Shown: in pieces, positions 21,750-46,618 of the stretch
Layout: each line of letters starts with the position of its first letter
Numbering within the stretch: position 1 is the first letter of the stretch
DNA from: Escherichia coli
Lineage (GTDB): Bacteria > Pseudomonadota > Gammaproteobacteria > Enterobacterales > Enterobacteriaceae
DNA length: 64,000 nt
Assembly (NCBI RefSeq): GCF_017348835.2
Contig: NZ_CP071375.1
Direction: 5' to 3' (one strand)
The notes under the pieces: generated by a model
The model's input: the letters and a program-made list of their open reading frames with translations, nothing else
What the model was told of the DNA's origin: nothing
Databases searched by the model: none
Made by a program: the position numbers and the translations under genes

Positions 21750-21832
21750 TGTATGGTGTCATCGTAGTATGTTTGCAATGTGACGTCAATCAATGGTGTC
21801 AGATGCATGCAAAGCATGGAAAAGAATCCCCA

Positions 21833-23572
21833 TCAACTCAACGCCCCCATAATCTTCAACTCCAGCTCATCCGGCACTTCGTTATACGACAGCACATGCA
21901 GCCCCGGCGCAAACAACCTTGCGTAGCGCGCTAGCAAAGGGCGCAGCTGCGGCGGCACCAGCAGCACCGGGTCTTTCCCCGCCGCTTTCATCTGCTCCTT
22001 CACCTGCGGCATCGTGCTCTGGAACTGGTTGAGCATATTCGGGTCGACCGGCACGCTGTCGAGCATCACTTTGCCGCCCTGTTGCGCCTGATTCACCACG
22101 TTGGTCAGCAGATTTTCCAGCTCATTATTCAGCGTATACACCGTCAGCTCCTGCTTGCGAACGAAAGGATGAGTAATGCTGCGCCGCAGCGCCAGGCGCA
22201 CATCGGCCGCCAGCAGAATATGATCTTTGGTCACCGCGCTACTGGCGACCAGCACGGTGGCGATGGTGACGATGTCGCGCAGGGAAACGCCTTCGGTCAG
22301 CAGCGCACGGTACACTTTCAGCAACTGGCTGTAATTCAGCGCCGCGCTCAAATCCTCCGCCAGGCGCGGTGCCATTGACGACAAACGGTTATGCAACTGC
22401 GTGATGTCATCATAGTTAAACAAATCAGGAATATAACTGCGCACAATCTTATTCACATGGGTGGCAATCACGCTGGCGCTGTCGATCACCTGATACCCCA
22501 TATTCAGCGCCTTCGCTTTCTGCGCAGGCTGGATCCAGGTGACTGGCATCCCATACGCCGGGTCGTTCCCCAGCACGCCGTCTATCTCGCCGTAGGTTTC
22601 GCTGGAGGGCAGGGCCATCAGTTTATCCGCCGGAATATCCGCTTCATCAGCCTTAATGCCGTTGATGAAAATGGCGTACTGGCTGGGCTTGAGGCGGAAA
22701 TTTTCCCTAATGCGGATCTCCGGCAGCAGCACGCCGTTGCCGTCGGATATCACCTGCCGCACGCCGCGGATCCGCTGGGTGAGCGGGTTACCCTGTGCTT
22801 TATCGACCAGCGCTACTAGCTTGTAGCCAAGGCTTAAGCTGATGGGTTCGATCAGCGGAATGGTTTCCCAACTGACCTGTTGCTCGCTGGTTTCAGTGAT
22901 GGTGCGGGTCAGCGTTTCGAGGCTTTTCTCCTCCGCCTCTGCCGCCTGCGGCTGTTTGCTCATTCGCCAGCCGGTAAAGCCAAGCAGGGCGCTGAACATC
23001 AGGAACGGCAGGTGCGGCATCCCCGGCACCACTGCCAGCACAAACATAATTCCGGTAGCGGTGTAGAGCACCGACGGGCTTGCCAGCAGTTGGTTACGCA
23101 CGTCATGGGCGATATCGCCGTTGTCGCTGACGCGGGTGACGATAATCGCCGCTGCGGTGGAGAGCAGCAGGGAAGGGATCTGCGCCACCAGCCCATCGCC
23201 GATGGTCATCAGCACATATTGCTGGAAGGCGGCATCGGCGCTCAGGTTGTATTTGAAGATCCTGATACAGACGCCGCCGATCAGGTTGATCGCCAGAATC
23301 ATCATCCCGGCGATGGCATCCCCGCGCACAAACTTCGATGCCCCGTCCATCGCGCCGTAGAAATCGGCTTCGCTGGCGACATCTTTACGCCGGGTTTGCG
23401 CCTGCGCCTGGTTGATCAATCCGGCGTTAAGGTCGGCGTCAATCGCCATCTGCTTGCCGGGCATCGCGTCAAGGGTAAAGCGGGCAGAAACCTCGGAAAT
23501 ACGCTCGGCCCCTTTGGTGACGACAATAAAGTTGATTGTCAACAGCGTCAGTAAATCCGAGCGTGAAAGCAT
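21833..23572 (-). pseudogene. lfhA: FlhA-family export protein remnant lacking its N-terminal membrane domain (Flag-2 remnant)
   Basis: 579-aa product homologous to the FlhA central and C-terminal regions; first ~110 aa absent. Confidence 0.8.
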
Positions 23573-24302
23573 TATCGCCGCGCTGCACGGGCAGTCGATT
23601 TTTAACGGTGGTGGGCTGTCGCCGTTAAATAAAATCAGCCCGTCTCATCCGCCAAAACCTGCCACCGTGGCGGTGCCGGAAGAGACGGAGAAAAAAGCGC
23701 GTGATGTGAATGAGAAAACGGCGCTGCTGAAGAAGAAATCCGCCACCGAGCTTGGCGAGTTGGCAACCAGTATCAACACCATTGCCCGTGATGCGCATAT
23801 GGAAGCGAATCTGGAGATGGAGATTGTTCCCCAGGGATTACGCGTGCTGATTAAAGACGACCAGAATCGCAATATGTTCGAACGCGGCAGCGCGAAGATT
23901 ATGCCGTTCTTTAAAACGCTGCTGGTGGAGCTAGCGCCAGTGTTCGACTCGCTCGATAACAAAATTATTATTACCGGGCATACCGATGCGATGGCCTACA
24001 AAAACAATATCTACAACAACTGGAACCTTTCGGGCGATCGCGCGCTTTCAGCTCGTCGGGTGCTGGAAGAGGCCGGAATGCCGGAAGATAAAGTGATGCA
24101 GGTAAGCGCAATGGCGGACCAGATGCTGCTGGATGCCAAAAATCCGCAAAGCGCGGGCAATCGGCGTATTGAGATTATGGTGCTGACCAAAAGTGCGTCC
24201 GATACGCTGTATCAATACTTTGGTCAGCATGGGGATAAAGTGGTGCAGCCACTGGTGCAAAAGCTGGATAAGCAGCAGGTGCTTTCGCAGCGAACGCGTT
24301 AA
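23412..24302 (+). pseudogene. lafU: MotB/OmpA-like protein remnant (Flag-2 remnant); true start uncertain, ORF overlaps lfhA
   Basis: C-terminal OmpA-like domain (IIITGHTDAMAYKNNIYNNWNLSGDRALSARRVLEE); no N-terminal transmembrane segment. Confidence 0.65.
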
Positions 24303-24372: not shown

Positions 24373-25428
24373 ATGCGTAAAATCATTCATGTGGATATGG
24401 ACTGCTTTTTCGCAGCGGTGGAGATGCGCGACAATCCCGCCCTGCGCGATATCCCTATTGCTATTGGCGGCAGCCGCGAACGTCGAGGGGTGATCAGCAC
24501 CGCCAATTATCCCGCGCGTAAATTTGGCGTACGTAGCGCTATGCCGACAGGGATGGCGCTCAAATTATGCCCACATCTCACCTTGCTTCCGGGGCGCTTT
24601 GACGCCTACAAAGAAGCCTCAAATCATATCCGTGAAATCTTCTCGCGCTACACCTCGCGCATTGAACCGTTGTCACTGGATGAAGCCTATCTCGATGTCA
24701 CCGATAGCGTCCATTGCCACGGTTCTGCGACCCTCATCGCCCAGGAAATCCGCCAGACGATTTTCAGCGAGCTGCAACTGACGGCGTCTGCGGGCGTGGC
24801 ACCAGTAAAGTTTCTCGCCAAAATCGCCTCCGACATGAATAAACCCAACGGCCAGTTTGTGATTACGCCGGCAGAAGTTCCGGCATTTTTACAAACCTTA
24901 CCACTGGCAAAAATCCCCGGCGTCGGCAAAGTCTCGGCGGCAAAACTGGAAGCGATGGGGCTGCGGACCTGCGGTGATGTACAAAAGTGTGATCTGGTGA
25001 TGCTGCTTAAACGCTTTGGCAAATTTGGCCGCATTTTGTGGGAGCGTAGTCAGGGGATTGACGAACGCGATGTTAACAGCGAACGGTTGCGAAAATCCGT
25101 CGGCGTGGAACGCACGATGGCGGAAGATATTCATCACTGGTCTGAATGTGAAGCGATTATCGAGCGGCTGTATCCGGAACTTGAACGCCGTCTGGCAAAG
25201 GTAAAACCTGATTTACTGATTGCTCGCCAGGGGGTGAAATTAAAGTTCGACGATTTTCAGCAAACCACTCAGGAGCACGTCTGGCCGCGGCTGAATAAAG
25301 CTGACTTAATCGCCACCGCGCGTAAAACCTGGGATGAACGCCGCGGCGGGCGCGGTGTGCGACTGGTGGGGCTGCATGTGACGTTGCTTGACCCGCAAAT
25401 GGAAAGACAACTGGTGCTGGGATTATGA
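24373..25428 (+). CDS. dinB: DNA polymerase IV
   Basis: 351-aa product [33 protein letters not shown]... Confidence 0.95.
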
Positions 25429-25877
25429 ATAACATACAAATAAGAAACTATCAGCCTGGCGATTTTCAGCAACTATGCGCTATTTTCATTAGAGCGGTTA
25501 TGATGACCGCCAGTCAGCATTATTCACCACAACAAATTGCCGCCTGGGCGCAGATTGACGAATCTCGCTGGAAGGAGAAACTCGCGAAATCACAAGTGCG
25601 GGTTGCAGTCATTAATGCACAACCGGTTGGTTTTATTTCCCGCATTGAACATTATATCGATATGTTATTTGTTGACCCTGAATACACCCGCCGTGGGGTT
25701 GCCAGCGCTTTGTTAAAACCTTGGATTAAGTCTGAATCCGAACTTACGGTGGACGCAAGCATAACCGCAAAACCCTTTTTTGAACGTTATGGTTTTCAGA
25801 CAGTTAAGCAGCAGCGCGTTGAATGCCGGGGAGCGTGGTTTACTAATTTTTCTATGCGATATAAACCGCAACATTAA
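25425..25877 (+). CDS. yafP: GNAT-family acetyltransferase YafP
   Basis: 150-aa product; ATG overlaps the dinB stop. Confidence 0.85.
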
Positions 25878-26183: not shown

Positions 26184-26400
26184 ATGGAATGGTACATGGG
26201 CAAATATATTCGTCCCTTATCCGATGCGGTATTTACCATCGCATCTGATGACCTGTGGATCGAGAGTTTAGCGATCCAACAATTACACACCACGGCAAAT
26301 TTACCCAACATGCAGCGCGTAGTGGGGATGCCAGATTTACACCCCGGACGCGGCTACCCGATTGGCGCAGCGTTCTTCTCTGTTGGTCGTTTTTACCCGA
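26184..26400 (+). pseudogene. ykfJ: RtcB-family fragment
   Basis: [16 protein letters not shown] motif typical of the RtcB N-terminus; only ~70 aa before a frame change into prfH. Confidence 0.6.
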
Positions 26401-26828
26401 CAAGACGTCGCGGTAACAGTGCTGGAAACAGAAACAGGTCGTTACTCTGACACCCTGCGTTCAGCGCTGGTTTCTCTGAATGGCGACAACGCATGGGCAT
26501 TAAGCGAAAGCTGGTATGGCACTATTCAGTGGATTTGTCGGAGTCCGTATCGCCCACATCATGGGCGTAAAAACTGGTTTCTGGGCATTGGGCGTTTTAC
26601 TGCTGATGAGCAGGAACAATCCGACGCGGTCCGTTATGAGACGCTGCGTTCGTCGGGGCCGGGCGGTCAACATGTCAATAAAACCGATTCGGCGGTGCGC
26701 GCCACGCATCTGGCTACCTGGATTAGCGTGAAGGTTCAGTCAGAGCGCAGCCAGCATGCCAACAAGCGGCTGGCACGATTGCTGATTGAACCGCCCCGGG
26801 TTTCCTGGAGAGTGTTTTATCTGTGAAC

Positions 26829-27716
26829 TCAGGCTGCCAGATCATTATTTCCGATGGAAGCATAATAAGCTTTTTCTGCTTCTGCCGGAGGAATATGGCC
26901 CAGCCTTTCCAGCAATCGTCGATTGTTATACCAGTCCACCCACGTTAGTGTGGCCAGTTCCACTTCTGTCCGGTTTTTCCAGCTCTTACGGTGTATTACC
27001 TCCGCTTTGTAAAGACCATTGATGCTCTCCGCCATCGCGTTGTCATACGAGTCGCCAGTACTCCCTGTTGATGCCAGTAATCCGGCTTCCTTAAGCCGCT
27101 GCGTGTAGGCCAGCGATACATACTGAGAACCTTTATCACTGTGATGGATTGTGCCGGACGGCCGACGGGCCCACAACGCCTGCTCCAGTGCATCCAGCAC
27201 GAATGTTGTTTCCATGGATGATGAGACCTGCCATCCCACGATGTATCCGGCGAACACATCAATGATGAACGCCACATAAACGAAGCCCTGCCATGTGCTT
27301 ACCCAGGTAAAATCAGCCACCCACAACTGGTCTGGACGTTCTGCCACGAACTGACGGTTTACGCGGTCGCATGCGGCAACGGCTTTCCGGCTGACGGTAG
27401 TGCGGACCTTTTTACCCCGGAGAACACCGGCAAGTCCCATAACTGCCATGAGACGTGCCACAGTGCATCTGGCCACTCTGATACCTTCCCGTAACAACTG
27501 ACGCCAGACTTTACGCACACCGTATACCTGGTGATTTTCATCGTATACGCGCTGTATCTCTTTCTTCAGCCAGTCATCGTGCTGCGCACGGGCACTGCGT
27601 TTATCCGGATGATGTCGCTGTTGCTGACAATGGTAATACGTTGACGGGGCAATATGCAGTTCGCTGCATACCGGTCCGACCCCGTACTGCTCACGCAGCT
27701 TATCCAGCAGTGGCAT
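26829..27716 (-). CDS. IS629-like transposase OrfB (DDE catalytic domain)
   Basis: 295 aa; start overlaps the orfA stop, consistent with IS3-type frameshifting. Confidence 0.85.
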   Translation of the reverse strand: MPLLDKLREQYGVGPVCSELHIAPSTYYHCQQQRHHPDKRSARAQHDDWLKKEIQRVYDENHQVYGVRKVWRQLLREGIRVARCTVARLMAVMGLAGVLRGKKVRTTVSRKAVAACDRVNRQFVAERPDQLWVADFTWVSTWQGFVYVAFIIDVFAGYIVGWQVSSSMETTFVLDALEQALWARRPSGTIHHSDKGSQYVSLAYTQRLKEAGLLASTGSTGDSYDNAMAESINGLYKAEVIHRKSWKNRTEVELATLTWVDWYNNRRLLERLGHIPPAEAEKAYYASIGNNDLAA

Positions 27717-28042
27717 TATTTTTTCCAGAGGCGGTCGAACTCCGCCTTCGCAAAATAAGCGGAAGCCTGGCGAAGGATATCGTTACTGCGGCGCAGTTCA
27801 CGATTTTCACGTTCCAGCTCTTTCAGACGCTGACGTTCAGCGGTGGTGAGTCCACCATCACCACTCCCGGTATCCCGCTCATGCTGGCGAACCCAGACAC
27901 GCAGAGTCTCCGGCGTACAGCCAATCTTTGGGGCAATGGAACAAATTGCCGCCCACTGTGAGTCATATTCATCCTGACTTTCCAGAACCATACGAATCGC
28001 CCGCTGACGGACTTCGGGGGAAAAACGAGTATTTTTAGTCAT
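27716..28042 (-). CDS. IS629-like transposase OrfA
   Basis: 108 aa, [26 protein letters not shown]..., helix-turn-helix. Confidence 0.85.
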
Positions 28043-28288
28043 CCTGTTTACCTCTTTCTCAGGGAGTTTAGTCTCCAGGATTTCCGGGGCGGTTCAGATT
28101 GCCTGGAAGCTGGAGCAACAGCAACAGGAAAATAGCGCAGTGCTGAAATCGCAGCGGCGAATGTTCCATCACCAGATTGAACGTGGCAACCCGCGACGAA
28201 CGTTTACAGGGATGGCTTTTATCGAAGGATAATGAAGGATGAAACTGCCGGAAGGCGATTAAACGCCATCCGGCAGCAAATCAAATAA

Positions 28289-29746
28289 TTACTTCGCTGG
28301 AATTTCTTTCAGCAGTTCAGTCAGCAGTGTCCAGTAATGACCTACGCTTTCGATGTGAACTTGCTCATCCGGAGAGTGTGGACCGGTGATTGTTGGCCCG
28401 ATAGAAACCATGTCCATTTCCGGATACGGTTTTTTGAACAGACCACATTCCAGGCCCGCGTGGATAATCTGGATGTTCGGCGTCTTGTTGAACAGACGCT
28501 GATAGGTTTCACGTACCAGATGCATCACCGGAGAGTTAGCGTCCGGCTGCCAGCCAGGATATGCGCCTTTCGCTTCGGTTTTCGCGCCAGCCAGTTTACC
28601 CAGCGAATCCAGCATGCTCACCACGTAGTCTTTACCGCTGTCGATCAGAGAACGGATCAGGCAGTGAATTTCTACATTATTGTCAGTCATGGTCACCACA
28701 CCGACGTTCAGGGAGGTTTCGACCACACCTTTTGCCACGTCGGAATTGCGGATAACACCGTTCGGGGTGGCGTTCAGCAGACGAATAAAGGTATCGCGAG
28801 ATTTCGCAATCAGGGCAGCTTTATCGTTCGCTACAGAGTCCAGCAACAAGGCCAGATTTTTCTCTTTCTCTGCCAGCTCGTTTTTCAGGATCTCCTGATA
28901 GGTATTCACCAGAGATTTCAGGGCGTCGACTTTATCAGCTGCGACAGCAATGGTCGCAAAGGCTTCACGCGGGATGGCGTTACGCAGTGTGCCGCCGTTG
29001 AAATCAATAAGACGCAGATCCAGTTCTTCTGCATGACCCGCCAGGAAGCGCACCAGCAGTTTGTTGGCATTACCCAGGCCAACGTGGATTTCACCGCCGG
29101 AGTGACCGCCTTTCAGACCTTTTAAGGTTAACTTGAAGGTTTCAAAACCAGCTGGAACCGCTTCACGATCTAAATGCAGGTTGGAGGTGAAGTCGATACC
29201 CCCCGCACAACCCATGTAGATTTCACCTTCTTCTTCGGAGTCGGTGTTAATCAGAATATCAGCCTGCAACCAGTTGCTCTGTAAGCCGAACGCACCGTCC
29301 ATACCGGCTTCTTCGGTCATGGTCAGCAGCACTTCCAGCGGACCGTGAACCACGTTTTCGTCAGCCAGAACCGCCAGCGCAGACGCCATACCAATGCCGT
29401 TATCCGCACCCAGCGTGGTGCCGCGCGCTTTAACCCATTCGCCATCAATATAAGGCTGGATAGGATCTTTCGTGAAGTCATGCACGGTGTCGTTATTTTT
29501 CTGCGGCACCATATCGAGGTGGGCCTGTAAGACGACCGGTTTACGATTTTCCATACCTGCGGTAGCAGGTTTACGAATCAGGATATTACCTACCTGATCG
29601 CGTTCGACATGGAAACCTTTCTCTTTTGCCCAACCAACAATGTATTCAGCGAGTTGCTCTTCATGATAGGACGGGTGAGGAATAGAACAGATTTTGGCAA
29701 AAATATCCCACAGCGGCTGTGGAGATAATTGAGACAGTTCAGACAC
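28289..29746 (-). CDS. pepD: Cytosol non-specific dipeptidase (aminoacyl-histidine dipeptidase)
   Basis: 485-aa product MSELSQLSPQPLWDIFAKICSIPHPS... Confidence 0.95.
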   Translation of the reverse strand: MSELSQLSPQPLWDIFAKICSIPHPSYHEEQLAEYIVGWAKEKGFHVERDQVGNILIRKPATAGMENRKPVVLQAHLDMVPQKNNDTVHDFTKDPIQPYIDGEWVKARGTTLGADNGIGMASALAVLADENVVHGPLEVLLTMTEEAGMDGAFGLQSNWLQADILINTDSEEEGEIYMGCAGGIDFTSNLHLDREAVPAGFETFKLTLKGLKGGHSGGEIHVGLGNANKLLVRFLAGHAEELDLRLIDFNGGTLRNAIPREAFATIAVAADKVDALKSLVNTYQEILKNELAEKEKNLALLLDSVANDKAALIAKSRDTFIRLLNATPNGVIRNSDVAKGVVETSLNVGVVTMTDNNVEIHCLIRSLIDSGKDYVVSMLDSLGKLAGAKTEAKGAYPGWQPDANSPVMHLVRETYQRLFNKTPNIQIIHAGLECGLFKKPYPEMDMVSIGPTITGPHSPDEQVHIESVGHYWTLLTELLKEIPAK

Positions 29747-30006
29747 GTTAAGTCTCCTTGTCGATCACCCGCAAAACAGTATTGCAGGTCACAGGGTTAG
29801 CAGAAAATGTTGTCAACACAAGACATGCTTGCGAGATATGTTTGAGAATACCACTTTATCCCGCGTCAGGGAGAGGCAGTGCGTAAAAAGACGCGGACTC
29901 ATGTGAAATACTGGTTTTTAGTGCGCCAGATCTCTATAATCTCGCGCAACCTATTTTCCCCTCGAACACTTTTTAAGCCGTAGATAAACAGGCTGGGACA
30001 CTTCAC

Positions 30007-30465
30007 ATGAGCGAAAAATACATCGTCACCTGGGACATGTTGCAGATCCATGCACGTAAACTCGCAAGCCGACTGATGCCTTCTGAACAATGGAAAGGCA
30101 TTATTGCCGTAAGCCGTGGCGGTCTGGTACCGGGTGCGTTACTGGCGCGTGAACTGGGTATTCGTCATGTCGATACCGTTTGTATTTCCAGCTACGATCA
30201 CGACAACCAGCGCGAGCTTAAAGTGCTGAAACGCGCAGAAGGCGATGGCGAAGGCTTCATCGTTATTGATGACCTGGTGGATACCGGTGGTACTGCGGTT
30301 GCGATTCGTGAAATGTATCCAAAAGCGCACTTTGTCACCATCTTTGCAAAACCGGCTGGTCGTCCGCTGGTTGATGACTATGTTGTTGATATCCCGCAAG
30401 ATACCTGGATTGAACAGCCGTGGGATATGGGTGTCGTATTCGTCCCGCCAATCTCCGGTCGCTAA
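30007..30465 (+). CDS. gpt: Xanthine-guanine phosphoribosyltransferase
   Basis: 152-aa product [23 protein letters not shown]... Confidence 0.95.
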
Positions 30466-30556
30466 TCTTTTCAACGCCTGGCACTGCCGGGCGTTGTTCT
30501 TTTTAACTTCAGGCGGGTTACAATAGTTTCCAGTAAGTATTCTGGAGGCTGCATCC

Positions 30557-31801
30557 ATGACACAGGCAAACCTGAGCGAAACCCTGTTCAAACCCCGCTT
30601 TAAACATCCTGAAACCTCGACGCTAGTCCGCCGCTTTAATCACGGCGCACAACCGCCTGTGCAGTCGGCCCTTGATGGTAAAACCATCCCTCACTGGTAT
30701 CGCATGATTAACCGTCTGATGTGGATCTGGCGCGGCATTGACCCACGTGAAATCCTCGACGTCCAGGCACGTATTGTGATGAGCGATGCCGAACGTACCG
30801 ACGATGATTTATACGATACGGTGATTGGCTACCGTGGCGGCAACTGGATTTATGAGTGGGCCACCCAGGCGATGGTGTGGCAACAAAAAGCCTGTGCGGA
30901 AGAAGATCCGCAACTCAGTGGGCGTCACTGGCTGCATGCGGCTACGTTGTACAACATTGCCGCCTATCCTCATCTGAAAGGAGATGACCTGGCCGAGCAA
31001 GCGCAGGCTTTGTCAAACCGCGCCTATGAAGAGGCCGCTCAGCGTCTACCGGGCACGATGCGGCAGATGGAGTTTACCGTACCCGGCGGTGCGCCCATCA
31101 CCGGCTTTTTGCATATGCCGAAAGGCGATGGCCCGTTCCCGACGGTATTAATGTGTGGTGGTCTGGATGCGATGCAGACGGACTATTACAGCCTGTATGA
31201 ACGTTATTTTGCGCCGCGCGGCATTGCGATGCTGACTATTGATATGCCGTCGGTGGGCTTTTCTTCAAAATGGAAGCTCACCCAGGACTCCAGCCTGTTG
31301 CATCAGCACGTCTTAAAGGCGCTGCCTAACGTACCGTGGGTGGATCACACTCGCGTCGCGGCCTTTGGTTTCCGTTTCGGCGCTAACGTTGCCGTGCGTC
31401 TGGCATACCTTGAATCGCCGCGTCTGAAAGCGGTTGCCTGTCTTGGTCCGGTAGTTCATACCCTGTTGAGTGATTTTAAGTGCCAGCAACAGGTGCCGGA
31501 AATGTATCTTGACGTTCTGGCGAGTCGTTTGGGGATGCATGATGCTTCCGACGAAGCGTTACGCGTGGAGCTGAATCGTTATTCATTAAAAGTGCAAGGA
31601 TTGCTGGGGCGTCGCTGCCCAACGCCAATGTTATCAGGCTACTGGAAGAACGATCCGTTCAGCCCGGAAGAGGACTCACGCTTAATCACCTCATCCTCTG
31701 CTGACGGTAAATTATTAGAGATCCCATTTAACCCGGTGTATCGGAATTTTGACAAAGGTCTTCAGGAAATCACGGACTGGATCGAAAAACGTTTGTGTTA
31801 A
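30557..31801 (+). CDS. frsA: Esterase FrsA
   Basis: 414-aa alpha/beta hydrolase matching FrsA. Confidence 0.9.
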
Positions 31802-32260
<459 letters not shown>

Positions 32261-32269
32261 GTGAAATGT

Positions 32270-32291
32270 GCCGGATGCATCACATCCGGCA
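32270..32291. terminator. Hairpin between convergent crl and phoE
   Basis: gccggatg-catca-catccggc. Confidence 0.5.
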
Positions 32292-32298
32292 ATAATCA

Positions 32299-33354
32299 TT
32301 AAAACTGATAGGTCATGCCAACCGCGACAATATCATCATTATTAATATTCAATTTGTTATCGCTATCCAGTTGGTTGATTTTATAATCAACAAACGCTGA
32401 CATATTTTTGTTGAAATAATATGTAGCCCCGACATCGATATAATTGACCAGATCTTCATCACCGATACCTTCAATATCTTTCCCTTTCGATAAGACATAA
32501 CCCAGCGATGGACGCAGACCAAAGTCAAACTGGTATTGAGCGACCGCTTCAAAGTTCTGTGTCTTATTGGCAAAGCCGCCAGTTATTGGCGTCATTTTGC
32601 GTGTTTCAGAATAAAAAGTTGCCAGATAAATATTATTGGCATCGTATTTCAGACCTGTTGCCCATGCTTCTGCACGCTTGCCTGTGCCACGGCTTTGCAG
32701 GTTCTGCTCGTTGGTGCGATCTGAGTTGGTATAGGCCCCACTAATGGCGAAATCGCTGCCGCCAAAGTCATATGTCAATGACGTGCCGAAGCCATCGCCG
32801 TTTTGCTTTTTAACATCGCGGTTTTCGTTTTTCCCTTGATATTGCAGGGTTAAGTTCAGGCCATCGATAACACCGAAGAAGTCGGTGTTCCGATACGTCG
32901 CCAGACCGCTGGCGCGTTTGGTCATAAAGTTGTCGGTCTGCGCCGAGGAGTCGCCACCAAATTCCGGGAACATATCGGTCCAGGCTTCCACGTCATACAA
33001 CGCGCCCAGGTTACGACCATAATCGAAAGAACCCAAATCTTTATATTTCAACCCGGCAAAAGCGAGACGCGTTTTTTGCTGTGCAGTATCACTCTCTGCT
33101 TTATTACCGGCAAACTCTGCTTCCCAACGACCATAACCAGTCAGTTGATCGTTAATTTGTGTTTCGCCTTTAAAACCAAAACGGATATAACTCTGGTCGC
33201 CATCTTTACTGTCGTTATCACTCATATAATGCATGGCTTTAACTTTGCCATAGACATCCAGTTTATTACCGTCTTTGTTATATATTTCTGCGGCCTGTAC
33301 GGATGCAGATGCCACAATGCCCATCACCACTAATGCCCGAGTACTCTTTTTCAT
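32299..33354 (-). CDS. phoE: Outer membrane phosphoporin PhoE
   Basis: Porin sequence ending ...VAVGMTYQF; start placed at [21 protein letters not shown]. Confidence 0.95.
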
Positions 33355-33389
33355 TTTCATTCCTGATTTTAATTAACGCGCGAATATTC

Positions 33390-33455
33390 AGCGGGAGAGT
33401 CCCGTTGAAAACAGGAAAGTTTTTAACCTGAGATTGTTAAAGATATATTACAGAT
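33390..33455 (-). promoter_or_regulatory. phoE promoter region with Pho-box-like repeats
   Basis: Reverse strand reads CTGTAATATATCTTTAACAATCTCAGG..., resembling PhoB-binding CTGTCATA-type repeats. Confidence 0.5.
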
Positions 33456-33641
33456 TAATAATATTCTTAAAATGTGGTAATTTATTAAATCTGTAATGAA
33501 AGCGTAAACAACTGCCGCTACGCTTGCTGATCCCGCGCAACAAAACGCCATGCTTTGCTCGCAGATGGTTGGCAACCGACGACAGTCCTGCTAAAACGTT
33601 CGTTTGATATCATTTTTCCTAAAATTGAATGGCAGAGAATC

Positions 33642-34745
33642 ATGAGTGACAGCCAGACGCTGGTGATAAAACTCGGCACCAGTGTGCTAACAGGCGGATC
33701 GCGCCGCCTGAACCGTGCCCATATCGTTGAACTTGTTCGCCAGTGCGCGCAGTTACATGCCGCCGGGCATCGGATTGTTATTGTGACGTCGGGCGCGATC
33801 GCCGCCGGACGTGAGCACCTGGGTTACCCGGAACTGCCAGCGACTATTGCCTCGAAACAACTGCTGGCGGCGGTAGGGCAGAGTCGACTGATTCAACTGT
33901 GGGAACAGCTGTTTTCGATTTATGGCATTCACGTCGGGCAGATGCTGCTGACTCGTGCTGATATGGAAGACCGTGAACGCTTCCTGAACGCCCGCGACAC
34001 CCTGCGAGCGTTGCTCGATAACAATATCGTTCCGGTAATCAATGAGAACGATGCTGTCGCTACGGCAGAGATTAAAGTCGGCGATAACGATAACCTTTCT
34101 GCACTGGCGGCGATTCTGGCGGGTGCCGATAAACTGTTGTTACTGACCGATCAAAAAGGTTTGTATACCGCTGACCCGCGCAGTAATCCGCAGGCAGAAT
34201 TGATAAAAGATGTTTACGGTATTGATGACGCACTGCGCGCGATTGCCGGTGACAGCGTTTCAGGCCTCGGAACTGGCGGCATGAGTACCAAATTGCAGGC
34301 CGCGGACGTGGCTTGCCGTGCGGGTATCGACACCATTATTGCCGCGGGCAGCAAGCCGGGCGTCATTGGTGATGTGATGGAAGGCATTTCCGTCGGTACG
34401 CTGTTCCATGCCCAGGCGACTCCGCTTGAAAACCGTAAACGCTGGATTTTCGGTGCGCCGCCTGCGGGTGAAATCACGGTAGATGAAGGGGCAACCGCCG
34501 CCATTCTTGAACGCGGCAGCTCCCTGTTGCCGAAAGGCATTAAAAGCGTGACTGGCAATTTCTCGCGTGGTGAAGTCATCCGCATTTGCAACCTCGAAGG
34601 CCGCGATATCGCCCACGGTGTCAGTCGTTATAACAGCGATGCATTACGCCGTATTGCCGGACACCACTCGCAAGAAATTGATGCAATACTGGGATATGAA
34701 TACGGCCCGGTTGCCGTTCACCGTGATGACATGATTACCCGTTAA
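33642..34745 (+). CDS. proB: Glutamate 5-kinase
   Basis: Start placed at [19 protein letters not shown] (track ORF starts earlier at 33555). Confidence 0.95.
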
Positions 34746-34756
34746 GGAGCAGGCTG

Positions 34757-36010
34757 ATGCTGGAACAAATGGGCATTGCCGCGAAGCAAGCCTCGTATAA
34801 ATTAGCGCAACTCTCCAGCCGCGAAAAAAATCGCGTGCTGGAAAAAATCGCCGATGAACTGGAAGCACAAAGCGAAATCATCCTCAACGCTAACGCCCAG
34901 GATGTTGCTGACGCGCGAGCCAATGGCCTTAGCGAAGCGATGCTTGACCGTCTGGCACTGACGCCCGCACGGCTGAAAGGCATTGCCGACGATGTACGTC
35001 AGGTGTGCAACCTCGCCGATCCGGTGGGGCAGGTAATCGATGGCGGCATACTGGACAGCGGCCTGCGTCTTGAGCGTCGTCGCGTACCGCTGGGGGTTAT
35101 TGGCGTGATTTATGAAGCGCGCCCGAACGTGACGGTTGATGTCGCTTCGCTGTGCCTGAAAACCGGTAACGCGGTGATCCTGCGCGGCGGCAAAGAAACC
35201 TGTCGCACTAACGCGGCAACGGTGGCGGTGATTCAGGACGCCCTGAAATCCTGTGGCTTACCGGCGGGTGCCGTGCAGGCAATTGATAATCCTGACCGTG
35301 CGCTGGTCAGTGAAATGCTGCGTATGGATAAATACATCGACATGCTGATCCCGCGCGGCGGGGCTGGTTTGCATAAACTGTGCCGCGAACAGTCGACGAT
35401 CCCGGTGATCACAGGTGGTATAGGCGTATGCCATATTTACGTTGATGAAAGTGCAGAGATCGCTGAAGCATTAAAAGTGATCGTCAACGCGAAAACTCAG
35501 CGTCCGAGCACATGTAATACGGTAGAAACGTTGCTGGTGAATAAAAACATCGCCGATAGCTTCCTGCCCGCATTAAGCAAACAAATGGCGGAAAGCGGCG
35601 TGACATTACACGCAGATGCAGCTGCGCTGACACAGTTGCAGGCAGGCCCCGCGAAGGTGGTGGCTGTTAAAGCGGAAGAGTATGACGATGAGTTTCTGTC
35701 ATTAGATTTGAACGTCAAAATCGTCAGCGATCTTGACGATGCCATCGCCCATATTCGTGAACACGGCACACAACACTCCGATGCGATCCTGACCCGCGAT
35801 ATGCGCAACGCCCAGCGTTTTGTTAACGAAGTGGATTCGTCCGCTGTTTACGTTAACGCCTCTACGCGTTTTACCGACGGCGGCCAGTTTGGACTGGGTG
35901 CGGAAGTGGCGGTAAGCACACAAAAACTCCACGCGCGTGGCCCAATGGGGCTGGAAGCACTGACCACTTACAAGTGGATCGGCATTGGTGATTACACCAT
36001 TCGTGCGTAA
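34757..36010 (+). CDS. proA: Gamma-glutamyl phosphate reductase
   Basis: 417-aa product. Confidence 0.95.
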
Positions 36011-36124
36011 ATAAAACCGGGTGATGCAAAAGTAGCCATTTGATTCACAAGGCCATTGACGCATCGCCCGGTTAGTTTTAACCTTGTCCACCGTGATTCA
36101 CGTTCGTGAACATGTCCTTTCAGG

Positions 36125-36200
36125 GCCGATATAGCTCAGTTGGTAGAGCAGCGCATTCGTAATGCGAAGGTCGTAGGTTCGACTCCTATTATCGGCACCA
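36125..36200 (+). tRNA. thrW: tRNA-Thr (CGU)
   Basis: GCCGATATAGCTCAGTTGGTAGAGCAGCGCATTCGTAATGCGAAGGTCGTAGGTTCGACTCCTATTATCGGCACCA; cloverleaf with CGT anticodon and encoded CCA. Confidence 0.95.
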
Positions 36201-36214
36201 TTAAAATCAATAAG

Positions 36215-37378
36215 TTACACATCATTAGTACCTTCCTTATTTTTTGACTGGGACAAATTTGGGACCGATGGGTTCAGGATCGAGTCTATTTGCCGTGCGT
36301 GTTCGGTAAGGTGATTAGGTGCAAGGTGAGCATATCGACGAACCATTTCGATAGACTCCCAGCCTCCCATTTCCTGTAAAACTGACAACGGGACTCCGGC
36401 TTGAACCAGCCAACTTGCCCAGGTGTGTCTCAAGTCGTGAAATCTGAAATCATCAATACCAGCCCGTCTCAGCGCCGCTTTCCAGGCTGTGTTTGCGTCA
36501 TACCGCATCTTCCTTACTGTTGGCGCTTTCGTTCCGTCTGGTTTGGTACAGCTTTCCTTGTACACAAATACCCAACGGTGATGATTCCCGATTTGTTTTT
36601 TCAAAACGCGACATGCAGTATCATTCAGCGCAACGCCAATTGCGCGGTTTGATTTACTCTCTTCCGGGTTTATCCATGCCACCCGGCGCTGCATGTCTAT
36701 TTGTTGCCATTCAAGGTTGATGATGTTCGAGCGTCTTAAGCCTGTTGCCAGTGCAAATTCAACAACAGACTTTAATGGCTCCGGACATTCATCAATCAGC
36801 CTTTGTGCTTCATGGGGCTCCAGCCAGCGGATCCGTTTATTCTTTGGTTGAGGCACTTTAATAATTGGTGCCTTATCCAGCATTTTCCATTCACGCTCTG
36901 CGGCTCTTAGTAGGGCCTTTATAAATGAAAGATGCGTAGCCTTCGTTGCAACGGACGCTGGTTTTGGCGTGTATTCTGGAACAGGTTTCCCTTTTTTTCT
37001 GCATGCTTCTGCCCTGAGTCTCCAGTTTTCCTCATGACGCCGGTTCGTCATTTTCTGCATTGCTGAATAAATTTTTGATTCAGTAATGTCTCTTAGTTGC
37101 ATTCCTGCGAAATGTTGAAGCCAGAATCCGATCCGGCTTTTGTCATCGTCCAGTGATTTTTTATGTGCTTTCTCTTCAAGCCACCTGACACACGCTTCCT
37201 CGAACGTTATATCAGGTATTTCACCAAGTTTGCTGACCCGCCATGCTTCAGCCTTTAGCTTGTCATGGAGTTCTGTCGCCTGCCTTTTGTCCTTTGTTCC
37301 AAGAGACTGTTTAAATCTTTTACCGTTCGGCAATGTGAAACTGGCGTACCATATTTCACCTCTGCGGAAGAGTGACAT
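36215..37378 (-). CDS. int: Phage integrase (tyrosine recombinase, P22 Int-like)
   Basis: 387 aa, [46 protein letters not shown]...; C-terminal HDLRHT...Y catalytic region. Confidence 0.9.
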
Positions 37379-37605
37379 TTTCTTTCCTCTGTTATGCCAT
37401 CACCCGCGCTCACCTGGACAGTATGCAGCGGAGACTGAAGAGCCGCAATGCAGGCTTGTCGTGTTGTGAGGTAAGGAGATTTATTCTTAGTGGGATCTTT
37501 GCGTGTTGCCTGAAGACGCCCTGTGCGTATCCAGTTAATGGCAGTCGGTCTGGATATCTTGAGAAAATGACAGGCCTCATCGAGTGTGAGGCTGTATGGC
37601 TCCAT
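37255..37605 (-). CDS. xis: Excisionase (Xis)
   Basis: 116 aa from the internal [37 protein letters not shown]...; 3' end overlaps the int start. Confidence 0.6.
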
Positions 37606-37910
37606 TATTTCACCTCTTGCTGTGACATTGTTGAAAAATGGATACCAGCTCGTTGCTGCCAGACGATCCAACCGAGAGTCATATCCCATGCCATGTATTC
37701 GTTATCGCCGTTTTTTGCTCTCCGACGATCTACTAAGTCACCGAAACGCTTTTCCATGAATAATTCATAAGCTTCGCGTTCATCTGGCTCTACTTCCAGA
37801 GATAGGAGTGCGATTTCATAAGCACGGCGCTCAATATCGTCTCGCACGTCAAGGCTGCTGATACGCTCTTTAATTTCTTTAATCAGTTCTTTGTCGGTAA
37901 AAGTGGTCAT
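37605..37910 (-). CDS. Phage early-region hypothetical protein (YfdT-like position)
   Basis: 101-aa ORF in operon-like overlap with neighbours. Confidence 0.4.
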   Translation of the reverse strand: MTTFTDKELIKEIKERISSLDVRDDIERRAYEIALLSLEVEPDEREAYELFMEKRFGDLVDRRRAKNGDNEYMAWDMTLGWIVWQQRAGIHFSTMSQQEVK

Positions 37911-38272
37911 TATGCTCCAGCCTCCGGTGCTTTTGGCATTACTGCCCAGTGAGTGATATTGACGTTTTCAAGGTCCCCAACCTGAAATGTCCACTGCCAT
38001 TCTCCGGTTTCTTTTTGTCCCCAGGTGTACCAGAGAGAACGCCAACCAATTAGCCAGCCTTCTCCGTTAGCATCGAATAACAAAACACTTTCATTTGCTG
38101 GTGGCAGTTCAGTTGACACTGGTATTACTTTGTTTTCCTGTGCTGCACATTTAGCTTCAAGCGCATCGAATTTACGCACCAGGTATTCAGCATCTGTTTC
38201 ATTTACTTTCAGATCTCGCGGTACACATCTCCCACGAAGAAACCCTTCCATTTCGAAAACATTCATGCGCAT
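37910..38272 (-). CDS. Phage early-region hypothetical protein (YfdS-like position)
   Basis: 120-aa ORF in operon-like overlap with neighbours; no family recognised. Confidence 0.4.
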   Translation of the reverse strand: MRMNVFEMEGFLRGRCVPRDLKVNETDAEYLVRKFDALEAKCAAQENKVIPVSTELPPANESVLLFDANGEGWLIGWRSLWYTWGQKETGEWQWTFQVGDLENVNITHWAVMPKAPEAGA

Positions 38273-38799
38273 TTGCGTAACTCCGATAACTCGTTAAAGC
38301 GTTCCATAAACATCCCGTAGGCATGGCCCGGTGCCAGTGGAATCACGTTGAACATCTCTGTTGCCGGGATACCTTCCAGTACAGGCCAGAAAGAGCCATC
38401 ATCAAGCCCGAGATCGCGGCGTTCGGTTGCCAGCATGATGAGATCGGCATATTTCACGGGCGTACTCATAACTGGGGGTAACCCGTATTTCTCACGGATT
38501 ACGGCGTCTATTTTTTCTTCCATTTGTTTATAGTCAGGAAGAAGGCGTTTCAGTGGTGCGGGAATGTCCTGGCAATTCGCTTCTGTTGCATCATGCATTA
38601 ACGCTTCAAAAGCAAATTCCTGCGGCACCAACTGGCTGCAAAGAACCGCATGTTGGGCGACGCTGTAGAAGTGCGAAAGATGACCGGCAAAGCGACAGAT
38701 ATTTGAAAGGGAAACCGCGATATCGTTAATATCGATGTCGTCTTTATTTATCCTGTCATAATAAAAATGCTTCCCGGAAAAAGTTTTAATAAATGACAT
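38263..38799 (-). CDS. HD-domain phosphohydrolase, YfdR-like
   Basis: MSFIKTFSGKHFYYDRINKDD...; H...HD motifs (FAGHLSHFYSVAQHAVL...MHDATEA). Confidence 0.65.
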   Translation of the reverse strand: MSFIKTFSGKHFYYDRINKDDIDINDIAVSLSNICRFAGHLSHFYSVAQHAVLCSQLVPQEFAFEALMHDATEANCQDIPAPLKRLLPDYKQMEEKIDAVIREKYGLPPVMSTPVKYADLIMLATERRDLGLDDGSFWPVLEGIPATEMFNVIPLAPGHAYGMFMERFNELSELRKCA

Positions 38800-38926
38800 T
38801 TTGTTCTCCACGTATATGCGCTGCACCGCGCTGAATTTTGGTTAAAGAAAACCCTCGCCATCAGGCGATTATTGAGTTAATTACGTTTCTATAAATGCCC
38901 CCGCAGGGGCATTTGCAGTAATGAAA

Positions 38927-39751
38927 TCAGGCGGTGAAAGTACCAATAAAGGTTTCTACTTTGCTGTCTTTGAATTTTTCAACAAGCAGATTACGAAATT
39001 CGTTAGCCATTTCTTCCTGTACTGCTTCCAGCTGAATAATGCGCAGAACCAGTACAGGGCGATCACCAGTGATAATGCTGAGGCGTAATTTAAACGGACG
39101 TTCTTTCAGGCCTTCAAACGGAACGCATTTAAACTCAAATGCTACTGGCATAATGTCTTTAGTTTTCGCTTCGACAGACTCCATCAGAGAGCGTTTGCCG
39201 CTGAAGTCATTGTCTTCAAAATCAGCGGTCTGGTTTGCTTCAATCGTGATTTTACGGACCGCCGCAGCCGCTTTTGTTGCCTGAATGGCGTCACCATTAG
39301 CATCAAAGCCCACAAGGTAGTCGGCCCAGTCTTCAATCCATTCTGCCAGTGACTTCTGGGAGTTACGCTCGCCGTTAACAGACAACAGGGCAGAGAACGG
39401 TGCTGTCTTTTTCAGTTTGAGAGTGGCGGTGTTATCTGCGTGACCTGGTTCATCAATAGTACCCAGGTTAAGCACACTGACGGCTCGCATATTATCAGCA
39501 TCGATAAAGCAGCGGGTGCCTTCATCTGCAAGATCTTTAGAATAACGGATAAAGTCATCGATGCTGGCAGTGGAAAGCGCACCACGGAAACGGAAGCGAT
39601 TTAAATTAAATTTTTCCAGATCATGAATGCGGAAATTCTCAGGCAATGCCACAGCATCGGCACCAATCTTACTGATAATTTCATTAACACTCTGAGCAGA
39701 AATAAGGGCATGGATTTGATTAATTTCGGTTGCGTCTAAGTTCTGAGACAT
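38927..39751 (-). CDS. YfdQ-like phage protein (DUF2303-type)
   Basis: 274-aa ORF adjacent to the HD-domain gene, as in P22-like early-left regions. Confidence 0.5.
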
Positions 39752-39816
39752 AATAAGTCCTCACTATATAAAGATATTCAGTGATGAGATAAATAATCAG
39801 TTAATTAAGAACGATA

Positions 39817-40197
39817 TTAATGACCTGCTGCGCGGAGTTTTCCGTCAGGTTCACCGGCAAGAGTCAGTAATTGTCCCTGGTCTTCCTGCAGAATAGTCAG
39901 GCGACCACCGCGATTGACATACATCGGTGTTTCGGTGGTGTCTTCTTCGGAAATTTTCCCGCGGTTAGTCGGGCGAACATATGAGAGTTTGTGTTTGATT
40001 TTCACACGGTTCTCATCAAATGGTTCGATTTCCAGGTTGAGCGAGACCTTACCTTTGGTTTTCGTGTTCATCACACCGGAAGCGACTTCACTGAGAACTG
40101 CGCCGATTTTGGTTTCAAATACGCCGCCGTCCAGCTCCCCGATAAATGCCTGCACATCAGTACTGCGTTCGCTAGCCATTTTGCTGCTCCTCATCAT
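39817..40197 (-). CDS. Phage hypothetical protein (YfdP-like position); start sits at the deletion junction
   Basis: 126-aa ORF whose 5' end coincides with the point where J-homologous sequence begins. Confidence 0.35.
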
Positions 40198-40199
40198 AT

Positions 40200-41874
40200 C
40201 GACCCTGCAAGGTCGGTTATCGCACGGCTGGAAGCAGAAGGCTGGTTAACGCGTAAGGCGCGTCGCCAGGGTAACGGCTGGGAGACGGCGACAGAGCTTG
40301 TTGAAGATACGCAGGCCATTCTCCGTTACGGTCGTAACGTCACGAAGATGGATGCCTTTGGCTGTACCAGCCGGGGGCAGGCGCACCGCGCCGGGCTGTG
40401 GCTGATTAAAACGGAACTACTGGAAACGCAGACCGTGGACTTCAGCGTGGGTGCGGAAGGGCTTCGCCATGTGCCGGGCGATGTCATTGAAATCTGCGAT
40501 GATGACTATGCGGGGATCAGCACCGGCGGGCGCGTGCTGGCGGTGAACAGCCAGACCCGGACGCTGACGCTCGACCGTGAAATCACGCTGCCATCCTCCG
40601 GTACCACGCTGATAAGCCTGGTTGACGGAAGTGGCAATCCGGTCAGCGTGGAGGTCCAGTCCGTCACCGACGGCGTGAAGGTAAAAGTGAGCCGTGTTCC
40701 TGACGGCGTTGCCGGATACAGCGTATGGGGGCTGAAGCTGCCGACGCTGCGCCAGCGCCTGTTCCGCTGCGTGAGTATCCGTGAGAACGACGACGGCACG
40801 TATGCCATCACCGCCGTGCAGCATGTACCGGAAAAAGAAGCCATCGTGGATAACGGGGCGCACTTTGACGGCGACCAGAGCGGCACGGTGAATGGTGTCA
40901 CGCCGCCAGCGGTGCAGCACCTGACCGCAGAAGTCACCGCAGACAGTGGGGAATACCAGGTGCTGGCGCGATGGGACACACCGAAGGTGGTGAAGGGCGT
41001 GAGCTTCCTGCTCCGTCTGACCGTAACAGCGGACGACGGCAGTGAGCGGCTGGTCAGCACGGCCCGGACGACGGAAACCACATACCGCTTCACGCAACTG
41101 GCGCTGGGGAACTACAGGCTGACAGTCCGGGCGGTAAATGCCCGGGGGCAGCAGGGTGATCCGGCGTCGGTATCGTTCCGGATTGCGATGATTAATCCTG
41201 CGAATGGCAACACAAAGCCGATGTTTGTTGGTCAGGGCGATCAGATATTCATGAACGACGTGTTCCTGAAACGCCTGACGGCTCCGACCATTACCAGTGG
41301 CGGTAATCCTCCGGCATTTTCCCTGACACCGGACGGGCGGCTGACGGCGAAAAATGCCGATATCAGCGGTAACGTGAATGCGAACTCCGGGGCGCTCAAC
41401 AACGTCACGATTAACGAGAACTGTCGGGTTCTGGGAAAATTGTCCGCCAACCAGATTGAAGGCGATCTCGTTAAAACAGTGGGCAAAGCTTTCCCCCGGG
41501 ACTCCCGTGCACCGGAACGGTGGCCATCAGGGACCATCACCGTCAGGGTTTATGACGATCAGCCGTTTGACCGGCAGATTGTTATTCCGGCGGTGGCATT
41601 CAGCGGCGCTAAACATGAGCGGGAGAATAACGATATTTATTCGTCATGCCGCCTGATAGTACGGAAAAACGGTGCTGAAATTTATAACCGTACCGCGCTG
41701 GATAATACGCTGATTTACAGTGGTGTTATTGATATGCCAGCTGGTCGCGGCCACATGACGCTGGAGTTTTCGGTGTCATCATGGCTGGTAAATGACTGGT
41801 ATCCCACAGCAAGTATCAGCGATTTGCTGGTTGTGGTGATGAAGAAAGCCACCGCAGGCATCAGTATCAGCTGA
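40200..41874 (+). pseudogene. J: Lambda J-like tail tip/host-specificity gene, 5'-truncated and with an internal deletion
   Basis: ...[94 protein letters not shown]... to the J C-terminus; only the C-terminal part present. Confidence 0.8.
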
Positions 41875-41941
41875 ATTTTATAACCCATATACGGGCGCCA
41901 GAAATGGCGCCTTTTTTATTGCAGAAAAGCGAGAGGTAATT

Positions 41942-42541
41942 ATGCGTAAAGTTTGTGCAGCCATTTTGTCCGCAGCCATCTGTCTGGCCGTATCCGGTGC
42001 GCCTGCATGGGCATCTGAGCAGCAGGCCACGCTGAGCGCAGGGTATCTTCATGCCCGTACGAACGCTTCCGGCAGCGATAATCTGAACGGGATTAACGTG
42101 AAATACCGTTATGAGTTTACGGACACGCTGGGGCTGATTACGTCATTCAGTTATGCCAACGCTGAAGATGAGCAAAAAACGCATTACAGCGATACCCGCT
42201 GGCATGAGGATTCCGTGCGTAATCGCTGGTTCAGCGTGATGGCGGGGCCGTCTGTGCGCGTGAATGAATGGTTCAGCGCGTATGCGATGGCGGGTATGGC
42301 TTACAGCCGTGTGTCGACTTTCTCCGGGGATTATCTCCGCGTAACTGACAACAAGGGGAAAAAGCACGATGTGCTGACCGGAAGTGATGACGGTCGCCAC
42401 AGCAACACGTCTCTGGCGTGGGGAGCTGGCGTGCAGTTTAACCCGACCGAATCCGTGGCCATTGATGTCGCTTATGAAGGCTCCGGCAGTGGTGACTGGC
42501 GCACTGACGGGTTCATCGTGGGTGTTGGTTATAAATTCTGA
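41942..42541 (+). CDS. lom: Lom-family outer membrane protein (Ail/Lom)
   Basis: 199 aa with signal peptide and C-terminal ...GFIVGVGYKF. Confidence 0.9.
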   Translation: MRKVCAAILSAAICLAVSGAPAWASEQQATLSAGYLHARTNASGSDNLNGINVKYRYEFTDTLGLITSFSYANAEDEQKTHYSDTRWHEDSVRNRWFSVMAGPSVRVNEWFSAYAMAGMAYSRVSTFSGDYLRVTDNKGKKHDVLTGSDDGRHSNTSLAWGAGVQFNPTESVAIDVAYEGSGSGDWRTDGFIVGVGYKF

Positions 42542-42599
42542 TTAGCCAGGTAACACAGTGTTATGACAGCCCGCCGGTTCAGGCGGGCTTTTTTGTGGG

Positions 42600-44417
42600 G
42601 TGAATATGGCAGTAAAAATTTCAGGTGTACTGAAAGACGGCACAGGAAAACCGGTACAGAACTGCACAATCCAGCTGAAAGCAAAACGTAACAGTACCAC
42701 GGTGGTGGTGAACACGCTGGCATCTGAAAATCCGGATGAAAAGGGGATAGTACAGCTCAGCAGTGCGACCAACAGCACTTCCGAGTCACTGGCGGCAACG
42801 CCAAAAGCCGTTAAGGCCGCGTATGACCTGGCTAACGGGAAATACACCGCACAGGATGCAACGACAGCACAGAAAGGGATAATCCAGCTAAGCAGCGCGA
42901 CCAACAGCACGTCTGAAACGCTGGCGGCAACGCCAAAGGCAGTAAAAGCAGCCAATGACAATGCTGAGAAACGTCTGCAGAAAGATCAGAACGGTGCGGA
43001 TATCCCTGGCAAAGACACCTTTACGAAAAATATTGGTGCCTGCCGTGCCTTCGGTGGGTCAGTAAGCACAACAACAGGAAACTGGACGACTGCACAGTTT
43101 ATCGAGTGGCTGGATTCTCAGGGAGCATTTAACCATCCATACTGGATGTGCAAGGGTTCCTGGTCTTATGGCAATAATAAAATCATTACTGATACTGGCT
43201 GCGGTAATATTCATCTCGCCGGAGCTGTCATTGAAGTAATGGGGATAAAGTCAGCGATGACGATCCGCATTACCACTCCGACCACATCCAGCGGTGGCGG
43301 AACAACCAACGCCCAGTTTACCTATATTAATCACGGAACAGATTATTCACCTGGCTGGCGAAGGGACTATAACTCCAGAAATAAGCCAACGGCATCAGAG
43401 ATCGGGGCGCTACCGTCAGGTGGAACAGCAGTATCATCAGTTAATCTGGCTTCAAAAGGTCGGGTAGCCGCGCTGACAGACAATACGCAGGGGGCAGCAG
43501 GTCTTGAGTTATACGAGGTGTATAACAACGGATATCCAACAGCGTATGGAAATATCATTCACCTGAAAGGGATGACAGCCGTTGGCGAAGGTGAGTTACT
43601 CATCGGCTGGAGTGGTACAAGTGGTGCTCATGCTCCGGCATTTATTCGTTCACGACGGGATACGACCGACGCAAACTGGTCGCCGTGGGCGCAGCTTTAC
43701 ACCTCGGCTCATCCTCCTGCAGAGTTTTATCCAGTCGGTGCACCAATCCCGTGGCCATCAGATACCGTTCCGTCTGGTTATGCCCTGATGCAGGGGCAGA
43801 CTTTTGACAAATCTGCTTACCCGAAACTTGCAGCCGCTTATCCGTCAGGCGTGATCCCTGATATGCGTGGCTGGACGATTAAGGGCAAGCCCGCCAGTGG
43901 TCGTGCCGTATTGTCTCAGGAACAGGATGGCATTAAATCGCATACCCACAGCGCCAGCGCATCCAGTACGGATTTGGGGACGAAAACCACATCGTCGTTT
44001 GATTACAGCACTAAATCCACGAATAACACTGGTGCGCATACCCATAGTTTAAGTGGCAGCACGAATGCAGCTGGTAATCACAGCCATAGAGATGGCCGTC
44101 GATTTAACCCCAGTGTTTTTAAAGATACTTATCAATATGGTTATACAAGCTCAGGTCAAAATACTTGGGGTGTACAAGGCTCAGTAGGTATGTCTACGGG
44201 GTGGTTAGCTAATACCAGTACAGATGGTAATCATAGCCACTCACTGTCCGGCACAGCAGCATCTGCAGGTGCACACGCGCATACTGTCGGTATTGGTGCT
44301 CATACGCACTCCGTTGCGATTGGTTCACATGGACACACCATCACCGTTAACGCTGCTGGTAACGCGGAAAACACCGTCAAAAACATCGCATTTAACTATA
44401 TTGTGAGGCTTGCATAA
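42600..44417 (+). CDS. stf: Side tail fibre protein Stf (shorter than lambda Stf)
   Basis: [28 protein letters not shown]... N-terminus and the conserved C-terminal His-rich repeats ([27 protein letters not shown]...[18 protein letters not shown]). Confidence 0.85.
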
Positions 44418-45001: not shown

Positions 45002-45362
45002 TCATTGGGATTATGCCGCAGAAACGTTGTATGCAATAACGTTTTGCGGTTGGCTGGTGAACTTCCGATAGTGCGGGTGTTGAATGATTTCCAGCTGCTA
45101 CCGATTTTACATATTTTTGCCTGAGAGGATTTGAACCGCCTCCACAGACTCTACATCACAGATAACCACTGTCACGAGGACTGTTAGTGCTGTGAGTTCA
45201 ACGGGGCGATGTACGCTACCTTTAATCAAGAGGGAGAGGTACGTTGCTAAGATGAGTTTATATTCATCAACTAAGTGCAGATCAGCGAATAACTAAAACT
45301 TGGCTGTCTGAACCGCCCCGGAAATCCTGGAGACTAAACTCCCTGAGAAAGAGGTAAACAGG

Positions 45363-46576: not shown

Positions 46577-46618
46577 GTTCACAGATAAAACACTCTCCAG
46601 GAAACCCGGGGCGGTTCA

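Follow-up and report, generated by a model that had tools for sequence, protein, structure and literature searches.

A complete IS629 element interrupts a prfH remnant carrying the K-12-type deletion in Escherichia coli

IS629, known from Escherichia coli O157:H7 Sakai and Shigella sonnei and with IS1203 and IS3411 as isoforms, is a 1310-bp element of the IS3 family with TG...CA ends and TGAACCGCCCCGG at its tips. It carries orfA and orfB linked by a -1 frameshift together with an ALIL pseudoknot, and it generates a 3-bp target duplication; all of these features recur in the element described here. Rump et al. distinguished three IS629 subtypes lying 4-5% (55-60 bp) apart, with subtype I being IS1203-like, subtype II Shigella-like and subtype III O26:H11-like, and found 3-4-bp target duplications at 21 of 47 IS629 sites in O157 (PMC3271280). 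Transposition in the IS3 family is described as circular copy-out-paste-in (10.1101/2023.06.07.543989). The rtcB2-prfH pair has its own history in this species. Baranov et al. reported a deletion of ~1000 nt in K-12, W3110 and O157:H7 (PMC1586002), and the truncated rtcB2-prfH operon, unlike the intact operon of ATCC 25922, gives no protection against colicin E3 (PMC9223846). In the porcine atypical EPEC ST302 strain F2_18C, 23 copies of IS1203 or IS1203-like elements were counted and several ORFs were found to be disrupted (PMC6985150).

The locus described here lies in a 64,000-nt stretch of E. coli DNA (the window; contig NZ_CP071375.1 of assembly GCF_017348835.2). Per-base reading of the window places a 1310-bp element inside prfH (Table 1). 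The element aligns without gaps over all 1310 bp to the annotated IS629 of pO157 from O157:H7 Sakai (95.6%; 58 mismatches, or 4.4%) and to a copy in O111:NM FWSEC0005 that RefSeq labels 'IS3-like element IS1203 family' (95.9%; 54 nt different). Its 295-aa OrfB is identical, residue for residue, to the deposited 'IS629 transposase OrfB [Escherichia coli O157:H7 str. Sakai]', which bears out the IS629-like assignment made earlier from the sequence alone. The best Shigella boydii plasmid copy matches at 95.6%, and copies with at least 99% identity are limited to 198 records, for example from O103:H2 strains. Since the element is ~4% removed from both the IS1203-like and the S. boydii copies, it would belong to a minority subtype. 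Judged from these alignments it is IS629 of a non-IS1203 subtype, and by elimination probably of subtype III (O26:H11-like).

Table 1. Positions of the prfH insertion, its target and the second element copy within the window.
Feature	Coordinates	Strand	Basis or detail
rtcB2 (K-12 ykfJ) 5' remnant	26184..26399	+	NF007153 RtcB positions 1-69 of 379
Old deletion junction, 1027 bp lost	26396..26399	no strand	BLAST against intact O111 locus
prfH 5' fragment, codons ~32-161, GGQ included, without native start codon	26397..26786	+	
Left target-site duplication GAT	26784..26786	no strand	Sequence and empty-site comparison
IS629 (IS3 family), complete, 1310 bp	26787..28096	-	Transposase antisense to prfH
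Terminal inverted repeat, orfA-distal end, starts TGAACCGCCCCGG	26787..26813	no strand	Tip match to other end
orfB frame, HTH_21 and rve DDE catalytic core	26829..27716	-	NF033516 positions 93-369, 6.9e-93; Pfam rve 2.6e-26
ALIL pseudoknot, frameshift-stimulating RNA	27645..27761	-	Rfam RF01497
Programmed -1 frameshift site TGG AAA AAA TAA	27716..27727	-	Sequence and fusion translation
orfA, 108 aa, HTH_Tnp_1 DNA-binding part	27716..28042	-	NF033516 positions 1-86; PF01527
Terminal inverted repeat, orfA-proximal end, finishes CCGGGGCGGTTCA	28070..28096	no strand	Tip match
Right target-site duplication GAT	28097..28099	no strand	Sequence and empty-site comparison
prfH 3' fragment, codons ~161-204, ...AFIEG	28097..28232	+	TAA stop 28230-28232
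Second IS629 copy, inverted, 100% identical to prfH copy	45309..46618	+	Flanks GTC / TCT

The element retains the parts expected of a working IS3-family transposon. Its terminal inverted repeats pair at 13 of 13 tip bases and at 22 of the first 25, with TG...CA ends and TGAACCGCCCCGG at both tips. A predicted OrfAB fusion of 404 aa (26829..28042) is built by a -1 shift on the A6 run at 27719..27724, immediately ahead of the orfA stop at 27716..27718; the two frames overlap at TGGAAAAAATAATG, where the overlap reads TGG AAA AAA TAA TG. The fusion contains no stop or frameshift, carries HTH_Tnp_1, HTH_21 and rve, and scores 311.8 bits against the NCBIfam model of the IS3 transposase (NF033516, cut-off 160). 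The ALIL pseudoknot matches RF01497 over its full length of 1-117 (120.3 bits against a gathering score of 50; E 8e-32), covers the slippery run and reaches ~75 nt 3' of the A6. An identical transposase CDS is labelled 'programmed frameshift' in RefSeq. The exact 404-aa OrfAB fusion was not found in the protein collection, where OrfA and OrfB are present as separate entries and supplied the names used here. The intactness of the element and the presence of an identical second copy in the window suggest that the prfH element is apparently active.

The insertion site was resolved by comparison with genomes that lack the element. The sequence-only reading had described a simple transposition of a 1310-bp element at 26787-28096, flanked on both sides by GAT; these coordinates are exact to the base, and both triplets are present. 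Excising 26787..28099 (1313 bp) in silico, as that reading had proposed, restores a single unbroken prfH frame that runs to ...AFIEG and then two stops, across the join ...AACAAGCGGCTGGCACGATTGCTGAT|TGCCTGGAAGCTGGAG.... A match of three flanking bases has a chance of 1/64 and is weak evidence by itself, so we took the empty site as the decisive proof. The excised sequence, used as a query with 600 + 600 bp around the site, was found in 13 complete E. coli genomes, XH990 and O157:H16 Santai among them, at 100% identity, full length (1200 bp) and in one BLAST piece. The excised prfH sequence is thus a true natural empty site, contiguous in all 13 genomes, and the prfH copy shows no rearrangement. 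Each GAT is followed by a T (the first base of the element on the left, position 28100 on the right), so that the literal repeat is GATT. A 4-bp duplication was rejected because the T that would complete GATT on the left already belongs to the element, whose canonical sequence opens with TG...; with canonical TG...CA ends the duplication is counted as 3 bp. GAT/GAT lies within the 3-4 bp duplicated by IS629, and the natural empty sites agree with it.

The gene that received the element had been damaged before. With the intact O111 FWSEC0005 rtcB2-prfH pair (379 and 204 aa) as a reference, BLAST maps position 26399 of the window to 2713 and position 26396 to 3737 of the intact locus; the junction itself falls in a short stretch of microhomology, CCG(G/A)CA. 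The deletion took rtcB2 codons ~70-379 together with prfH codons 1-31. What is left of rtcB2 encodes ~69 first residues of the RNA ligase followed by an out-of-frame run into prfH; the matching F2_81 stretch is annotated in RefSeq as 'RtcB family protein, missing C-terminus', and the F2_81 stretch matching the prfH 3' fragment as 'prfH, missing N-terminus'. The prfH product obtained after excision matches TIGR03072 (release_prfH) at 1.8e-79 over positions 31-200 of 200 only, in line with the N-terminal defect that had been suspected from the sequence alone and that can now be attributed to the 1027-bp deletion with the K-12 junction. It falls short of an intact PrfH, a protein of ~200-204 aa with an N-terminal domain and the GGQ motif whose translation is coupled to rtcB2 upstream: there is no ATG, and rtcB2 has been reduced to 69 codons. 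The 5' fragment still holds a Pfam RF-1 domain. The insertion point falls inside the Ile161 codon of PrfH (204 aa), downstream of the GGQ at residue 120, and the 5' fragment reads on for 13 codons into the element (ORF 26362..26826).

The deletion junction is identical in sequence to that of ykfJ/prfH in K-12 MG1655, and the remaining frame is the same. The two loci differ in that the remnant is split further here, by the element at codon 161, and in that K-12 has a yafNO toxin-antitoxin module alongside, which is missing here. Of 5426 complete E. coli genomes, 2715 retain the segment that the deletion removed; the deletion state is therefore about as common as the intact state. The deletion is found in all 13 empty-site genomes and the element in just three genomes, so the deletion must have come before the insertion, which indicates that prfH was already a pseudogene remnant of the K-12 type when IS629 arrived.

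Several features of the surroundings were noted. At 24373..25877, yafP comes immediately after dinB, its start overlapping the dinB stop; the yafN-yafO toxin-antitoxin pair that separates these genes in K-12 is missing in the window as well as in F2_81, PE164 and O111 FWSEC0005. Upstream of dinB, homology to F2_81 identifies a remnant of the lateral flagella (Flag-2) cluster at ~21800..24300, and the matching F2_81 stretch is annotated in RefSeq as a partial flhA-like pseudogene and lafU.

We hold with high confidence that a complete, apparently active IS629 jumped into the 3' part of the prfH pseudogene in an E. coli ancestral to a small clone associated with pigs. In the proposed mechanism, a -1 frameshift at the A6, stimulated by the ALIL pseudoknot, would fuse OrfA and OrfB into the 404-aa DDE transposase. 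The transposase would then act on the TG...CA inverted-repeat ends and produce a circular copy of the element in which the two ends abut. Pasting of this circle into a 3-bp staggered cut at the Ile161 codon, followed by repair, would double the GAT. We infer this circular copy-out-paste-in route for the prfH copy from the IS3 family as a whole. Nothing among the evidence examined contradicts the reading as an insertion. The element, its behaviour and the pseudogene are all known, and the arrangement is already annotated in RefSeq; the locus is a clean, textbook IS3-family insertion with a verifiable empty site, ordinary in kind and of little consequence.

The distribution of the occupied site was determined by searching 5426 complete E. 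coli genomes with a 2510-bp query spanning both junctions. F2_81, from a pig in Australia, was the sole complete genome to cover the full query (99.9%). PE164, from a pig in China, covered the left 76% and has the element at the same insertion site. The occupied site was found in none of the other complete genomes searched, and no independent insertion elsewhere in prfH was found among the 5426. For both carriers, RefSeq shows a prfH fragment, an IS3 family transposase (programmed frameshift, AL1L pseudoknot) and a second prfH fragment in this order. Over 10.5 kb the window differs from F2_81 at three bases, of which 26946 and 27030 fall within the element, and from PE164 at one base, 27030. 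F2_81 appears to be the published ST302 atypical EPEC strain F2_18C, as its plasmid of 82,910 bp has the size of pF2_18C_FIB. The text of that study (PMC6985150) contains neither prfH (0 occurrences, its disrupted genes included) nor the strain name F2_81; the prfH insertion is already present between two prfH fragments in the RefSeq annotation of what would be the same clone. Since F2_81 and PE164 share the site, the insertion is assigned to the ancestor from which a small clone of pig-associated strains descends, and prfH::IS629 can be used as a clonal marker that unites F2_81/F2_18C, PE164 and the source genome of the window.

Frequent recombination in E. coli and the occurrence of the three carriers on two continents would also fit an allele that already bore the element and was imported by homologous recombination, instead of transposition within the lineage. 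We consider such an import very unlikely: no donor with an occupied site was found outside the clone among the 5426 genomes, and 26-32 places matching the element on the carriers' own chromosomes offer local sources. Transposition at the prfH site would in any case be needed at the origin of such an allele.

The sequence-only reading had called the insertion probably recent, and in part this holds. The intact duplication, the 100% identity of the two copies in the window and the rarity of the site, shared by two of 5426 genomes, all point to a young event. The same observations could be taken to mean a very recent insertion private to the source genome. However, in F2_81 and PE164 the element occupies exactly this position beside the same GAT, and the flanks of both match the window except for 0-1 SNP per ~9 kb. 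One ancestral event is far more parsimonious than three insertions at a single nucleotide, making a private origin highly improbable. The age of the ancestral insertion is bounded loosely by the 8.9-kb right flank, which matches PE164 at 100%, F2_81 at 99.9% and the next genomes at 99.1%; these next genomes all have the empty site, so that the nearest of them are already ~0.9% divergent.

Codons 1-31 of prfH, its start codon included, and the greater part of rtcB2 were gone before the element arrived, so the insertion into this remnant destroys nothing functional. It is most likely neutral, with no effect on the cell: the RtcB2-PrfH ribosome-repair module had been lost beforehand to the much older K-12-type deletion, and no functional gene is altered. 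We also considered that the insertion was selected, either by removing a harmful truncated PrfH or by changing how pepD is expressed, via read-through or a promoter pointing out of the element. Nothing direct speaks for this, but the remaining prfH frame still has the GGQ, and pepD converges on the element from 190 bp away. Against it, the truncated prfH is uninterrupted in roughly half of E. coli, K-12 included, and BW25113 knockouts of the truncated gene had no phenotype in a colicin assay (PMC9223846). Among the 5426 genomes the insertion arose a single time, no other insertion into prfH was seen, and the transposase is transcribed away from pepD. Selection of this kind is hard to credit. 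Equally doubtful is the narrower proposal that the pig-associated clone was selected for splitting the GGQ-bearing PrfH fragment or for making a 17.2-kb segment invertible; that segment, from pepD to the thrW prophage remnant, does occur in either orientation within the clone. The prfH 3' end and pepD, which converge, are separated by a G+C-rich hairpin, ctgccgga...tccggcag (28243..28280), untouched by the element and probably a shared bidirectional terminator.

The one demonstrable consequence of the insertion is structural, in that it supplied homology for a 17.2-kb inversion that has been realised in PE164. The second copy in the window, which the sequence-only reading did not mention, has a prophage tail-fibre assembly gene on one side and a paoC without its 3' end on the other; it is flanked by GTC and TCT and hence without target duplication. 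The missing paoC 3' end and the lack of a duplication place this copy on an IS-associated deletion or rearrangement junction. A skeptic might extend this to the prfH copy and regard its GAT/GAT as a 1/64 coincidence at a recombination or deletion junction, but removal of the element and one GAT leaves 1200 bp that match 13 genomes at 100% in one piece and an unbroken prfH frame, and this natural empty site rules the idea out almost entirely. The prfH copy is thus retained as a simple insertion. F2_81 has no element at the second site, at paoC.

The 17.2 kb between the two copies (28097..45308) aligns in reverse in PE164 and contains the prfH 3' end, pepD, gpt, frsA, crl, phoE, proBA, thrW and the prophage remnant. 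The PE164 junctions read paoC'-IS-GAT-prfH3'-pepD and prfH5'-GAT-IS-phage tail, so that a GAT stays on each half of prfH. The reversed segment and these junctions indicate that the two copies recombined with each other and thereby inverted the segment. PE164 is the inverted form, and the arrangement at prfH in the window is the original one. The pattern is that of other IS-mediated inversions between inverted copies, small, local and not unusual, and the pair illustrates how identical IS copies drive local inversions.

Position 27030 is C in the window and A in both PE164 copies and in F2_81, which also differs at 26946. Copies that share a genome thus resemble each other more closely than orthologous copies from different genomes do, and this suggests gene conversion among the copies or sequencing and assembly effects.

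Within the inverted segment, an integrase and a short prophage remnant come after tRNA-Thr(CGT) (thrW) (36125..45300); at ~40218 the remnant jumps from early genes (yfdP-like) into a tail-tip (J) gene. F2_81 carries a full-length lambdoid prophage at thrW. From this full prophage in F2_81 it follows that the window and PE164 have either undergone a large internal prophage deletion or acquired a different mosaic.
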